A stretch of 64,000 nucleotides of DNA, from NCBI GenBank assembly GCA_043814985.1, contig JBDRJK010000001.1:28083-92082 (forward strand), read 5' to 3'. Each line of letters begins with the position of its first letter. Position 1 is the first letter of the stretch. The position numbers and the translations under genes were made by a program. The notes beneath the pieces were generated by a model, which was given only the letters and a program-made list of their open reading frames with translations, did not search any database and was not told the DNA's origin. This DNA comes from Candidatus Aenigmatarchaeota archaeon (GTDB lineage: Archaea > Aenigmatarchaeota > Aenigmatarchaeia > Aenigmatarchaeales > Aenigmatarchaeaceae). Positions 36,516 to 41,360 of this stretch are shown here, piece by piece.

Positions 36516-36815
36516 ATGGCAAGTAATCCTCTTGGTATTAAAATAGAACCAATTGATTTAGGTTTTAATTCCTCAAGAAAGAGTGGTAGAGATAAAAGAA
36601 GGTCCTTTACTAGAAGCCAAAAAAATGAAATTCTTTATCAACAAGGTAATAAATGTGCTATATGTCATAAGCCTTTAGATCCAAGAGATATTGAATATGA
36701 CCATAAAAAACCTTGGGCTTCTGGAGGTAGAACTATAACCATTAATGGTAGAGCATTATGTGGTTCTTGTCATAATAAAGTTAGCCACAAGACCAGATTA
36801 AAAAAAAGTAGATAA
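36516..36815 (+). CDS. HNH endonuclease (may extend to 36876 if one A of the A8 run at 36800-36807 is spurious)
   Basis: CAIC...EYDHKKP.ASGG...NGRALCGSCH. Confidence 0.88.
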   Translation: MASNPLGIKIEPIDLGFNSSRKSGRDKRRSFTRSQKNEILYQQGNKCAICHKPLDPRDIEYDHKKPWASGGRTITINGRALCGSCHNKVSHKTRLKKSR

Positions 36816-36995: not shown

Positions 36996-37042
36996 ATATT
37001 GAATTTATTTATTGTGTTGCTTATAAATTTATAGTGATTGAA

Positions 37043-37594
37043 ATGGACAGGGAAGAGGCACTAAGTTTGATAAAAGAAGGCACGGACAAGAAGAATCTCA
37101 TAAAGCACATGCTCGCAGTCGAAGCAATAATGAAAGGGGCAGCGGAATTCCTAGGGGATGATATTGAGAAGTGGGACATGACCGGATTATTGCATGACGT
37201 TGACTTCGAAAAGACCGAAGAAAACCCGAAGGAGCACGGAGTTATGGCAGAGACTATACTCGAGGGGAAAGTTGACAAAGAGATAATTGATGCCATAAAA
37301 TCCCATAATTTCGAATATACAGGAGTTCAGCCAAAGACAAAGATGGACTTTGCTCTAATAGCTGCAGACGCTGTATCAGGGCTCATAATAGCCAATGCAT
37401 TGATAATATCGTCAAAAAAGCTGGCAGACATCACACCAGAGAATGTTGCCAAAAGATTCAAGGAAAAGGACTTCGCAAGAAGATGCAGAAGGGAATTAAT
37501 TCTATATTGTGAGAAGGTAGGCATCCCCAAAGAAAAGTTCTTTGAAATATCGCTGAAGGCGCTGCAAAACATTTCGGATGAGTTAGGCTTGTGA
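37043..37594 (+). CDS. HDIG-type HD-domain hydrolase
   Basis: KHMLAVEA, GLLHDVD, IKSH and AADAVSG motifs; the stop codon coincides with the right end of the IS element. Confidence 0.9.
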   Translation: MDREEALSLIKEGTDKKNLIKHMLAVEAIMKGAAEFLGDDIEKWDMTGLLHDVDFEKTEENPKEHGVMAETILEGKVDKEIIDAIKSHNFEYTGVQPKTKMDFALIAADAVSGLIIANALIISSKKLADITPENVAKRFKEKDFARRCRRELILYCEKVGIPKEKFFEISLKALQNISDELGL

Positions 37595-37700
37595 CATTCT
37601 CATGATAAATCAAGAGATTCTAACTTCTTGAGTTAGTTACAGGCATTGTCACGGATGCCCCGTTCTTAGAGATATACTCTAAAAACCTCTTTTTGATGTT
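37571..37700 (-). ncRNA. Predicted TnpB omegaRNA (3' scaffold plus flanking guide); 5' boundary uncertain
   Basis: Stem-loops at 37642-37659 (GGCAT/ATGCC, loop containing GTGACA), 37620-37636 and 37598-37617. The loop GTGACA can pair with terminal TGTCAC (37591-37596) as a pseudoknot. Confidence 0.7.
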
Positions 37701-38720
37701 TTTAGCCCCATTAAAGTCAGCATTAACTTGGTATCCGCACTTCTTACATTTGAACAAACTTTGTGATTTTCTGTTTGCTTTATTCTTGTATCCACACTTG
37801 GAAGATGTTATAGACGTCTCTTTTTCTTCAATTTTAATTACTTTTATTCCTTTCCAACTTGCTTTATAGGTTATATACTGACTTAACTTGAAGTATGGCA
37901 TATTAGAAACTATTCTATTAAACCTCTTGCCTCTAGCTGATTTTCTAATTCCTTTCAAGTCCCCAAGTAGAATTAAGGAATTGTGCTGGTAAGCAAGGCT
38001 TACTATCTGCTTTGATATTTCATGAAGTTTTAGATTAACAGTTCTTTGTTCCTTGTTACCAATTTGTTTGATTTTCTTTAATAGTTTCTTTTCTCCTAGT
38101 CGTTTTCTCAACCAGGCATAATGCCTTCTAATTCCTCTAATCTCCCTTCCCATAAATATTGGTTTTCCGTTTAGCAGCACGGTTGCCAAAACCTTCTCTC
38201 CTATATCTATGGCAAGAATAGATGAGTATGATTTTTTGATCTCAATTTGTTTTTTTAACAACAATATGAATTTCAAAATTATTGTCTTTCTTAAATATTT
38301 TACTCTCGCATAATTTGTAATCTTTAGGAAATTTACAATGTGGCTTTATTGGTAACCACAAACCACCTCTACGTTGTTTAACAGGAATTCTTACCCAATA
38401 TTTACAGAATTTATGTTTAGTTTTTTTGAGTATAATCTGATCTTTTCTAATTGAAATAGGATACCTTTTATCTGATTTAATTTTCTTGTAATATCTTAAT
38501 GATTGTTGCTTGTTAGCAGAATGTAAAGGTATATTTTCTGCAATCCAATCTGCACCTATTCTCTCCAATTCTAGAAATTTTTGTAGATTGTCATATTCTT
38601 GTTTAAGAGCTTGATATTTTAATTTTGTTGGTTCAAATACTCTACATTTAATTGTCTTACTCGAGAACACATTAATTATTAGTATTCTAAAAATAAATAA
38701 TAGTATTAAAATTAGAGATT
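37591..38720 (-). mobile_element. Non-autonomous IS200/IS605-family (tnpB-only, IS1341-like) element; left end approximate
   Basis: tnpB plus a right-end signature on the minus strand, GAATCTCTTGA-TTTA-TCATGAGA-ATGTCAC. No Y1 or serine transposase nearby; AT-rich compared with the flanks. Confidence 0.8.
37620..38670 (-). CDS. tnpB: TnpB RNA-guided endonuclease (about 349 aa when joined), split by a +1 frameshift
   Basis: Removing one A from the A7 run (T-run 38250-38256) joins IHIVVKK to QIEIKKSYSSILAIDIGEK. RuvC-I IDIG, RuvC-II region LGDL, C-terminal CG...CKKCG..NADFNGAKNI. Confidence 0.9.
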
Positions 38721-38747
38721 ATAATTTAAAAACGGTGTTATAGGATT

Positions 38748-41360
38748 ATGGAGCTCAGGGGAATAGAGCAAAAGTGGAGAAAGAAGTGGGCAGACGCCAA
38801 GATATTCGAGGCAAAGGAAGGTAAAGGCAAAAAGTTCTATGTTCTGGAGATGTTGCCCTACCCCTCAGGAACTGCAGGACATGTGGGGCATGCAAGAAAT
38901 TATATAATAGGGGACAGCTTTGCCAGGTTCATGAGAATGAGAGGCTTCAATGTTCTCTATCCAATGGGCTGGGACGCATTCGGCCTGCCATCAGAGAACT
39001 CAGCAATAGAAAAGGGCATACACCCTGCGAAAAGCATAGCCCAGAACATAAAGACTTTCAAAGAGCAGCTTAATCTCTTATCTAACAGCTATGACTGGTC
39101 AAAGGAAATTACAAGTTGCGATCCAAAATACTACAAATGGAATCAGTGGCTTTTCTTGAAACTTTTCGAGAAAGGATTAGCTTACAAGAAGCTTGCTTTG
39201 GGCAACTGGTGCCCCGAATGTAAAACAACTCTGGCTAACGAGGATGTAAAGGATGGCAAATGCTGGAGATGTGATGCGGAGGTTGAACAGAAAAAAATCA
39301 ACCAATGGTTCTTCAAGATAACGGATTATGCTGACAGATTACTTGATGATTTGGACAAGATTAACTGGTCAGAAAATCTGAAGACGCTACAAAGAAACTG
39401 GATTGGCAAGAGCCAAGGAATCAATTATATTTTCAAGATCAAAGATTCAAACAAAAAAATAAGGACATTCACAACAAGACCGGACACTTTCTTCGGAATA
39501 ACCTTCATGGTAGTAGCTCCAGAAAACCAGTTGATAGAAGAGTTAATCAAGGATGCTAAAAACAAGAAAGGAATTGAAAAGTTCATAGAGGAGTCAAAGA
39601 AATTGTCAGAGCTTGAAAGGACAATGCTTACAAAGGACAAGAAGGGAATCTTCACTGGAAAGTATGCTATCAATCCTGTATCAAAGGATGAGATTCCGAT
39701 ATGGGTTGCAAACTATGTTGTAGGTACGTACGGAACCGGTGTTGTGATAGGAGTTCCAACCCAGGACCAGAGAGACTTCGAGTTCGCAAAGAAGTATGGC
39801 ATCAACTTGAAGAATGTGATCAATCCTCCTGGAAAGGATTTGAAAGAGAGTGAGATGAAGGAAGCCTATGTCGAGGAAGGCATAATGACCAACTCTCAAC
39901 AATTCAATGGAATGAAAAGTTCCGAAGGTATCAAGGCAATAGCAGACTTCCTTGTTGAAAAGGGCTATGCTGAGAGAACTATAAACTATAAAATAAGGGA
40001 CTGGTGCATCTCAAGACAGAGGTACTGGGGAACGCCAATACCGATTGTTTATTGTGACAAGTGCGGCATTGTTCCGGTTCCTGAAAAGGAATTGCCCGTT
40101 CTCTTACCAATAGATGTTGAGTTCGGGAAGGAAGGGGCTGCTCCTCTTGCAACAAATGAAGATTTCGTGAACACCAAATGCCCCAATTGCGGAGGTCCAG
40201 GCAAAAGGGAAACAGACACAATGACAACCTTTGTCGACTCATCATGGTATTACCTGAGGTATACTTCTCCCAATGATGACAAGGCTATATTCGATAAGAA
40301 GAAAGTGAACTACTGGCTCCCTGTTGACCAGTATATTGGCGGCATTGAGCATGCTGTTGGCCATCTTATGTACTCAAGATTCATAACAAAGTTCCTGAAA
40401 GACCAGGGTTATCTTGACTTTGAAGAGCCATTCTTGAAATTAACAAATCAGGGCATGGTAAATATGGGTGGAGTGAAGATGAGCAAATCAAAGGGCAATG
40501 TTGTTGACCCCAGAGATGTGATAAAGAAGCATGGAGTCGATCCATTGAGAACTTATTTGCTTTTCATGGCAGCTCCTATGAAGTCTGTTGAGTGGTCTGA
40601 CAAGGAAATGGGTGGAGTGAGCAGGTTCCTGGACAAGGTTGCAAACATGCTGGATGAAATGAAGAAGGCAAAAGGAGACAAGTATATTGAAAGTGTGACA
40701 CACAGAAAAATAAATGCTGTAACAAACGCTATGAAGAATCTTGAGCAGAACATTGCCATCATAGAGATGATGGACTTTGCAAACAAACTATCAAAGCATC
40801 CTTCTAAGGATTCTTACAAGACATTCTTGAAATTACTGACACCATTTGCTCCGCACACAACAGAGGAACTGTGGGAAATGCTAGGAGAAAAGCAAATGAT
40901 TTCAAAACAGAAGTGGCCTGAGCATGACGAATTCAAGATAAATATGAAAGTGGAGGCCGGTGAAGATTTTATAAACGATGTTATAAAGGACATCAAGGAA
41001 ATACAAAAGCTTTCCAAGATAGAGAAACCGGAAAAGATATCAATATTCGTGACACCCCACTGGAAGTACGAGGTCTTCAATGCGGTTCTGGAGGAAGTTG
41101 AGATGAAAGAACTGATGCAGAATCAAGAATTAAAGAAACTAGGAAACGCTGTTATCAAATACTACAAGAAGTTACAGAAGAGAAAGCCTTTGGAAGAGAT
41201 ATTCCTTACAGCTGGTTACGAGCATGAGATTTTAGAGGACAATAAAAAATTAATTGAAGGTGAGTTTGATTCAAAAGTTGAAATAATCAAAGCAGAGGAA
41301 GCAAAGAACCCAAAAGCACTGGTAGCAGAGCCTAGCAAGCCAGGAATTCTGGTTGAGTGA
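38748..41360 (+). CDS. leuS: Leucyl-tRNA synthetase
   Basis: MLPYPSG, HIGH-like HVGH, editing TTRPDT, DWCISRQRYWG and KMSKS. Confidence 0.97.
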   Translation: MELRGIEQKWRKKWADAKIFEAKEGKGKKFYVLEMLPYPSGTAGHVGHARNYIIGDSFARFMRMRGFNVLYPMGWDAFGLPSENSAIEKGIHPAKSIAQNIKTFKEQLNLLSNSYDWSKEITSCDPKYYKWNQWLFLKLFEKGLAYKKLALGNWCPECKTTLANEDVKDGKCWRCDAEVEQKKINQWFFKITDYADRLLDDLDKINWSENLKTLQRNWIGKSQGINYIFKIKDSNKKIRTFTTRPDTFFGITFMVVAPENQLIEELIKDAKNKKGIEKFIEESKKLSELERTMLTKDKKGIFTGKYAINPVSKDEIPIWVANYVVGTYGTGVVIGVPTQDQRDFEFAKKYGINLKNVINPPGKDLKESEMKEAYVEEGIMTNSQQFNGMKSSEGIKAIADFLVEKGYAERTINYKIRDWCISRQRYWGTPIPIVYCDKCGIVPVPEKELPVLLPIDVEFGKEGAAPLATNEDFVNTKCPNCGGPGKRETDTMTTFVDSSWYYLRYTSPNDDKAIFDKKKVNYWLPVDQYIGGIEHAVGHLMYSRFITKFLKDQGYLDFEEPFLKLTNQGMVNMGGVKMSKSKGNVVDPRDVIKKHGVDPLRTYLLFMAAPMKSVEWSDKEMGGVSRFLDKVANMLDEMKKAKGDKYIESVTHRKINAVTNAMKNLEQNIAIIEMMDFANKLSKHPSKDSYKTFLKLLTPFAPHTTEELWEMLGEKQMISKQKWPEHDEFKINMKVEAGEDFINDVIKDIKEIQKLSKIEKPEKISIFVTPHWKYEVFNAVLEEVEMKELMQNQELKKLGNAVIKYYKKLQKRKPLEEIFLTAGYEHEILEDNKKLIEGEFDSKVEIIKAEEAKNPKALVAEPSKPGILVE

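Follow-up and report, generated by a model that had tools for sequence, protein, structure and literature searches.

The 64,000-nt stretch of archaeal DNA analyzed here (the window) carries a compact tnpB gene at 37620-38670 on the minus strand, and the RuvC site of its predicted product has no glutamate at the usual RuvC-II place. The question raised by this locus is whether the protein has a relocated catalytic Glu, where such a protein stands among known RNA-guided nucleases, and whether this copy can still work. Altae-Tran et al. 2023 (PMC10691335) found rearranged RuvC-II sites in TnpB/Cas12, affecting two major clades and eight large branches. In the largest rearranged branch, Gly takes the place of Glu and β-5 bears the alternative Glu; some of the rearranged (RIIr) branches are nearly confined to archaea (PMC10691335). 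Rearranged proteins have also been named TnpB2, with the alternative Glu about 45 residues off (Jiang et al. 2023, PMC10530073). Our overall reading, of which we are highly confident, is that the locus is a TnpB-only passenger of the IS200/IS605 family encoding a TnpB with a relocated Glu, and that the copy in the window is a recent pseudogene. The host of the element is an uncultivated archaeon from groundwater, probably a DPANN archaeon.

The gene consists of two open reading frames on the minus strand that overlap at a run of seven A (38250-38256). The N-terminal frame (38242..38670, 142 aa) covers the WED/REC part and starts with GTG, where relatives have ATG. The C-terminal frame (37620..38276, 218 aa) contains RuvC-I Asp155, Gly236, Glu282, the zinc finger, and RuvC-III Asp318. 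A joined protein of 349 aa is obtained when the A7 run is read as six bases. This query, read through the frameshift, scored 156 bits against the NCBIfam model NF040570 for guided TnpB (cutoff 100) and 75 bits against Pfam PF07282 (cutoff 26.3), which agrees with the proposal of the earlier note that a compact archaeal TnpB is encoded at these positions. The NCBIfam Cas12f2 model gave 133 bits on the joined protein, far under its cutoff of 450.

A search of 5.8 billion proteins returned 849 relatives, the best of them 72% identical. Among the matches listed, relatives are mostly about 340-370 aa long, and the few that are named belong to Aenigmarchaeota and Nanoarchaeota. By these matches, the gene belongs to a populous clade of archaeal TnpB with members of about 345 aa, found abundantly in DPANN and other archaea. 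The earlier note had called the protein a very small nuclease; the length of about 349 aa holds, but it is not unusual, as judged by the family norm of about 340-370 aa. For the residue counts given below, 152 loci were taken from genome and metagenome collections, which yielded 112 non-redundant intact relatives; each count covers only those relatives with a residue at the position concerned.

All elements of the rearranged site were found in the joined protein. RuvC-I Asp155 lies in IDIG (codon 38207-38205, minus strand) and RuvC-III Asp318 in NADFN (codon 37718-37716, minus strand). Gly236, in LLGDLKG (codon 37964-37962, minus strand), stands at the usual place of the RuvC-II Glu, and Glu282, in IEEKETS (codon 37826-37824, minus strand), stands 46 residues downstream at the place of the Pro in VxPxxTS. 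When the family profile was aligned to AsCas12f, Gly236 fell on the RuvC-II Glu (iqmEDL) and Glu282 fell on the Pro of IDPQYTS. The reading of the motifs from the letters alone, with an alternative Glu 45-46 residues downstream, was thus accurate, and the arrangement matches what has been described for Fanzors and TnpB2 (PMC10530073, PMC11832414, PMC10691335).

The arrangement is shared by the relatives. Asp155 is kept in 108/108 intact relatives, and Glu282 and Asp318 are each kept in 107/107; position 236 is Gly in 106/107. An alignment of 62 sequences shows no variation at Asp155, Glu282, or Asp318, and conservation of at least 90% at Gly236. The earlier note had made its reading depend on conservation of the alternative Glu in the clade, and this residue is invariant. 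As far as aligned sequences can tell, relocation of the Glu is a fixed, conserved trait of the clade. An AlphaFold2 model was made for P0003, an intact relative that is 72% identical to the window copy (pLDDT 87.1, pTM 0.79). In this model, β-4 comprises residues 231-237 and holds Gly236, and β-5 comprises residues 277-281, with Glu282 directly after it. By analogy with known TnpB proteins (ISDra2, TvTnpB), the invariant Glu282 after β-5 would complete an Asp-Glu-Asp site and act as the metal-binding Glu. One intact relative, P0007 (L003/L004/L080, 67% identical), has Glu at both places, in LILLENLKE for the canonical RuvC-II site and in KIDEKGTS for the relocated site. The double Glu could be a reversion or an intermediate form.

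The window copy carries two lesions. The first is the A7 run, at which one extra base shifts the frame by +1, so that the N-terminal frame runs into a stop at 38244-38242. Relatives read AAA AAA GAA at this place, and the window has AAA AAA A CAA; by this comparison, the lesion is an extra base plus a G-to-C change and not a pure homopolymer slip. The second lesion lies in the zinc finger, which in the window copy consists of Ser289, Cys292, Cys308, and Cys311. Ser289 (TCT, codon 37803..37805, minus strand), in TSITSSKCG, stands at the first zinc-finger Cys and is one base from TGT. The four zinc-finger cysteines are each kept in 106-107 of 107 intact relatives, and position 289 is Cys in all 107. 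Ser289 is the sole departure of the window copy among 19 columns that are invariant in the relatives, and the copy departs at 1 of the 47 columns with at least 90% conservation. Asp155, the relocated Glu282, and Asp318 are all present; what the copy lacks is the first zinc Cys and an unbroken frame. Among recorded sequences there is no intact variant nearly identical to it, the best protein match being the 72% one. The window tnpB is probably a dead, recent pseudogene, a reading in which loss of function is deduced from the two lesions. Besides these, the gene is barely degraded, so the inactivation is recent or some function could persist.

The suggestion that some function persists can be put as follows: full-length TnpB would still be made, because transcriptional slippage at the A7 run, or a +1 shift of the ribosome there, would restore the frame, and the protein would tolerate a Ser-Cys-Cys-Cys zinc site. 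The shift does lie within a run of seven A, the N-terminal frame stops only two codons on, the remaining gene and its omegaRNA are nearly undamaged, and some TnpB branches lack any zinc finger (PMC10691335). Against this, 124 of the 141 relatives with a usable C-terminal match give one uninterrupted match to the query across the region, and the 15 nearer relatives that were inspected have no shift site and read AAA AAA GAA. Since the relatives are uninterrupted, frameshifting is no family trait, and a programmed frameshift was rejected. No known stimulator of a +1 shift on AAA AAA A is present here, and the Cys that Ser289 replaces is invariant in 107 relatives. We regard production of a functional full-length protein from this copy as improbable.

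An error of sequencing or assembly, under which the true gene would be one open frame, was judged from Logan contigs, with a depth of 3-9x. Homopolymers are error-prone, and in one groundwater run (X2) two contigs end and begin in or next to the A run (38244-38252); the contigs of the other two runs (X1 and X3) read through it. The break in X2 may reflect low depth or a minor length variant, and a minority A6 variant may exist alongside A7. However, contigs of three runs, two from groundwater and one from a biofilm of another study, match the window across the A run without difference: X1 over 37400-38680, X2 over 38244-38686, and X3, from the other study and habitat, over 37909-38355. The presence of A7 in contigs of three runs indicates that the extra base is present in the DNA, and Ser289 is a lesion independent of the A run. 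An error is therefore very improbable. The two caveats of the earlier note, a +1 frameshift in an A7 run and a Ser in place of the first zinc-finger Cys, were well founded, and together they weigh against its proposal that this copy may be active, given that the frameshift recurs in three runs and that 107/107 relatives have Cys where it has Ser289.

A relative (P0124, locus L153) has an empty site, whose flanks align to window 36999-37590 and 38719-39366 with about 83% identity. In this relative, the HD protein is 89% identical to that of the window, and the HD stop codon is followed by 23 bp and the leuS start. Comparison with the empty site delimits a whole TnpB-only element of IS200/IS605 type at 37591..38720 (minus strand, 1,130 bp), without a target-site duplication; a 2-nt ambiguity makes 37589-38718 equally possible. 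The empty site in a relative with such a similar HD protein indicates that the insertion is recent. The whole insert between the two housekeeping genes consists of tnpB and its ends. No tnpA was seen beside the window copy, and tblastn found no second tnpB copy in the 64,000-nt window.

In the window, the element separates a host gene for an HD-domain phosphohydrolase (37043..37594, plus strand; Pfam HD) from a leucyl-tRNA synthetase-like gene (leuS, 38748..41360, plus strand), named from reading its translation. The HD gene ends in GGC TTA TAA at the empty site and in GGC TTG TGA in the window, with its stop at 37592-37594. On insertion, the element split the final Leu codon of the HD gene, and its end (G TGA) restores Leu and supplies a stop, so that the HD protein stays at 183 aa, as in homologues. 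In tnpB orientation, the 3' terminus of the element is ...GAGAATGTCAC. The left end (38671..38720, minus strand) comprises 50 bp upstream of the GTG start; it is AT-rich, and its border was set from the empty site. The DNA of the left end shows no convincing hairpin (fold z-score 0.12). The adjoining flank, AAATTAT(AA) at 38721..38727 (minus strand), contains a candidate TAM, TTAT or TATAA.

Two further features of the neighborhood were observed. In window 38715-38747, leuS has retained a TATA-like TTATAATTTAAAAA about 20-33 nt before its ATG, re-formed where the left end joins the flank. The corresponding box of the relative overlaps the stop codon of HD; the element's AT-rich target and a promoter-like box thus coincide. 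At 200 bp upstream of the HD gene is a small gene for an HNH endonuclease (window 36516-36815, plus strand; Pfam PF01844, 36 bits).

The right end of the element carries the omegaRNA. DNA-level conservation in the relatives covers the last ~100 bases of the gene and ~30 bases past the stop, and flanks diverge directly after a terminal (G)TCAC, TTCAC, GTCAA, or AAGCA. A covariance model (R1) was built from 26 sequences; MAFFT alone misaligned the 5' side by a register shift, and the sequences were realigned with the model. In the window, R1 scored 59.5 bits (E 1.3e-13) at 37591-37660, within a scaffold that spans 37591..37686 on the minus strand. R1 matched the 3' end of tnpB in 85 of 99 loci of relatives. 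Two matches lie away from tnpB, at L031:4347-4439 (minus strand) and L111:1640-1735 (plus strand), and these are maybe solo right ends or remnants. No Rfam family matched the omegaRNA region, and no RNA-seq runs containing the stretch were found.

The predicted scaffold has four helices and a pseudoknot. Stem 0 (37686-37662, minus strand; 10 bp with a UAUAU loop) lies inside the coding region. Within the same minus-strand scaffold (37591..37686) follow stem 1 (GGGCAU/AUGCCU, loop CCGUGACA), stem 2 (CUAACU/AGUUAG), and stem 3 (CUCUUGA/UCAUGAG, one mismatch), and the terminal UGUCAC pairs with the stem-1 loop. Across 86 distinct sequences, 92.5% of cells are paired, compared with 67.6% in shuffles, and the proportion drops to 34-47% when the partners are slid. 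Two-sided changes number 527 in the same 86 sequences versus 160 in shuffles. The pseudoknot helix, which lies outside the model, is 92.7% paired and occurs as GUGAAC/GUUCAC, GUGAC/GUCAC, UUGACAC/GUGUCAA, and UGCUUU/AAAGCA. Stem 0 covaries across 82 loci, with a mean folding energy of -13.1 kcal/mol versus -6.9 kcal/mol in shuffles. The window retains every omegaRNA helix, apart from the one mismatch in stem 3. On covariation, the scaffold overlaps the 3' end of tnpB, ends at the right end of the element, and is still intact. From 37590 downwards, the bases after the scaffold are AAGCCUAACUCAUCC... The putative guide, AAGCCUAACUCAUCCGAAAU (37571..37590, minus strand), would be antisense to the 3' end of the HD gene; it is placed there because it lies directly past the conserved scaffold end, where the flanks of the relatives diverge.

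The wider family shows signs of mobility. One Aenigmarchaeota genome (LH_S7) contains four copies with 87-90% identity over about 1,200 bp, as well as a miniature element of about 135 bp with left and right ends only (L012:4819-4954). Left ends in LH_S7 are preceded by TTATAA, TAATTA, or TATTTA; these flanks would fit a presumed AT-rich TAM like the TTAT(AA) of the window. A Y1 TnpA gene (PF01797, 145 bits) adjoins tnpB in 7 of about 141 loci, and the other copies, including those with neighbor genes that were read, stand alone between host genes. The family belongs to IS200/IS605, and the lone copies and few Y1 neighbors indicate that its members are mostly non-autonomous.

Two further relatives were noted for their settings. 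P0015 (L006:1-5457 and L007) is flanked by genes of portal-like and terminase-like type, which places it in a virus or provirus whose host is uncultivated. Another copy (L026:2501-3596), 45% identical and with an omegaRNA of the same type, is on a contig that carries the label Candidatus Woesebacteria (CPR bacteria) and reflects either a cross-domain transfer or mis-binning of the contig.

From a copy that stands alone without tnpA nearby in the window and has a predicted guide antisense to a host gene, one might suspect domestication, with an immobile TnpB derivative now serving the host as a TldR-like regulator or a toxin, but the empty site in the relative with the 89% identical HD protein marks a recent insertion, relatives are multi-copy and some have Y1 TnpA, the catalytic residues are kept, unlike those of nuclease-dead TldRs, and the gene is broken, so that this explanation was rejected as almost certainly wrong.

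The preferred reading of a passenger element, inactivated recently, can be put in mechanistic terms. A 1,130-bp non-autonomous element inserted without target duplication into the last codon of the HD-hydrolase gene, just upstream of leuS. In intact members of the clade, TnpB would bind an omegaRNA that arises by transcription of the 3' end of tnpB itself and folds into four covarying helices and a pseudoknot. The complex would cut guide-matching DNA beside an AT-rich TAM (about TTAT/TATAA), and, once a Y1 TnpA acting in trans had excised the element, this cleavage would restore it at the donor site. We infer the nuclease activity of intact members, the TAM, and the guide by analogy with known TnpB (ISDra2, TvTnpB).

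As it stands, the locus matters little, because the rearranged RuvC site is published and widespread and the copy is a pseudogene. Its value is modest and descriptive: the TnpB-only element is cleanly bounded, with an empty site as control, and its omegaRNA covaries strongly and includes a pseudoknot. Although insertion of the element interrupted the final codon of a host gene, the codon was restored and a stop provided. Intact members such as P0003 or P0004, rather than the window copy, could be candidates for compact editors, and intact members of the clade could help to test whether relocation of the Glu arose more than once.

Among known systems, TnpB2/RIIr proteins are alike in several respects. 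As in these proteins and in archaeal TvTnpB, the RuvC-II Glu is Gly and an alternative Glu is conserved ~45-50 residues further downstream, either on β-5 or after it. Shared with TnpB2/RIIr are also an NADxN RuvC-III motif, a C4 zinc finger, an IS200/IS605 context with Y1 TnpA in autonomous members, and archaeal hosts. Unlike them, the window copy is frameshifted and lacks one zinc ligand. TvTnpB, from Thermoplasma volcanium, cuts DNA with the TAM NTGAC and without collateral activity (PMC10530073). The Fanzor2 protein ApmFz2 (PDB 9B0L) has a relocated triad of Asp324-Glu467-Asp501 (PMC11832414). That the alternative Glu lies near both Asp and is needed for cleavage was shown for ApmFz2 and inferred for TvTnpB (PMC10530073, PMC11832414). 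The relocated-Glu class has thus already been published and an archaeal member shown to cut DNA, and the present element is an ordinary, well-documented example.

Fanzor1 and Fanzor2 share with the present protein the TnpB fold (Foldseek E 2.5e-10) and a relocation of the Glu of like type; they differ in being proteins of eukaryotes or giant viruses with N-terminal extensions and an NLS. The kinship with Fanzors proposed by the earlier note was not borne out. The closest solved relatives by profile and fold are the Cas12f1 proteins AsCas12f, OsCas12f, and CnCas12f1 (PDB 8J3R, 7WJU, 9NZQ, 8HR5). In the profile search, AsCas12f scored 118 bits, Fanzor2 46 bits, and ISDra2 TnpB 37 bits, and Fanzor1 was absent among the matches listed; the five top-scoring alignments were all to AsCas12f variants, and the coordinate ranges of the Fanzor2 (9B0L) match do not by themselves align Glu282 with Glu467. 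The fold search was led by AsCas12f, OsCas12f, and CnCas12f1 with TMq 0.56-0.66 (AsCas12f 0.64-0.66), with ISDra2 TnpB at TMq 0.55 and Fanzor2 at rank 25 with TMq 0.49; the greater closeness to Cas12f1 than to Fanzor is one of similarity scores, not of phylogeny. Membership among Fanzors or pro-Fanzors is not supported, in view of the archaeal host, the weak Fanzor2 scores, and the far closer Cas12f1. The relocation of the Glu in this clade may have been an event separate from that in Fanzors.

The layout of RuvC, zinc finger, and WED is shared with Cas12f1. In contrast to the window TnpB, Cas12f1 retains the canonical RuvC-II Glu and the Pro in IDPxxTS, has 420-500 aa, depends on a CRISPR array, and acts as a dimer, whereas the insert here holds only tnpB and its ends. 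A CRISPR effector (Cas12f, type V-F) was rejected because there is no array, the Cas12f2 score lies below its cutoff, and the insert is fully accounted for. ISDra2 TnpB (PDB 8H1J, 8EXA) is likewise of the RNA-guided nuclease family and has an omegaRNA overlapping the 3' end of its gene. In both systems, the final scaffold bases ahead of the guide pair with an upstream loop to form a pseudoknot, and insertion takes place without duplication beside a TAM, a candidate one in the present element. Unlike the window TnpB, the ISDra2 protein has the canonical Glu, 408 aa, and a RuvC-III motif of DRDxN type. We put forward tentatively, as a possibility that we doubt more than we favor, that the clade relocated its Glu from β-4 to β-5 independently of pro-Fanzor TnpB2, on a branch that has Cas12f1 proteins as its nearest solved relatives, and that its intact members are active nucleases smaller than the TnpBs used for editing, with a ~100-nt omegaRNA scaffold and an AT-rich TAM.
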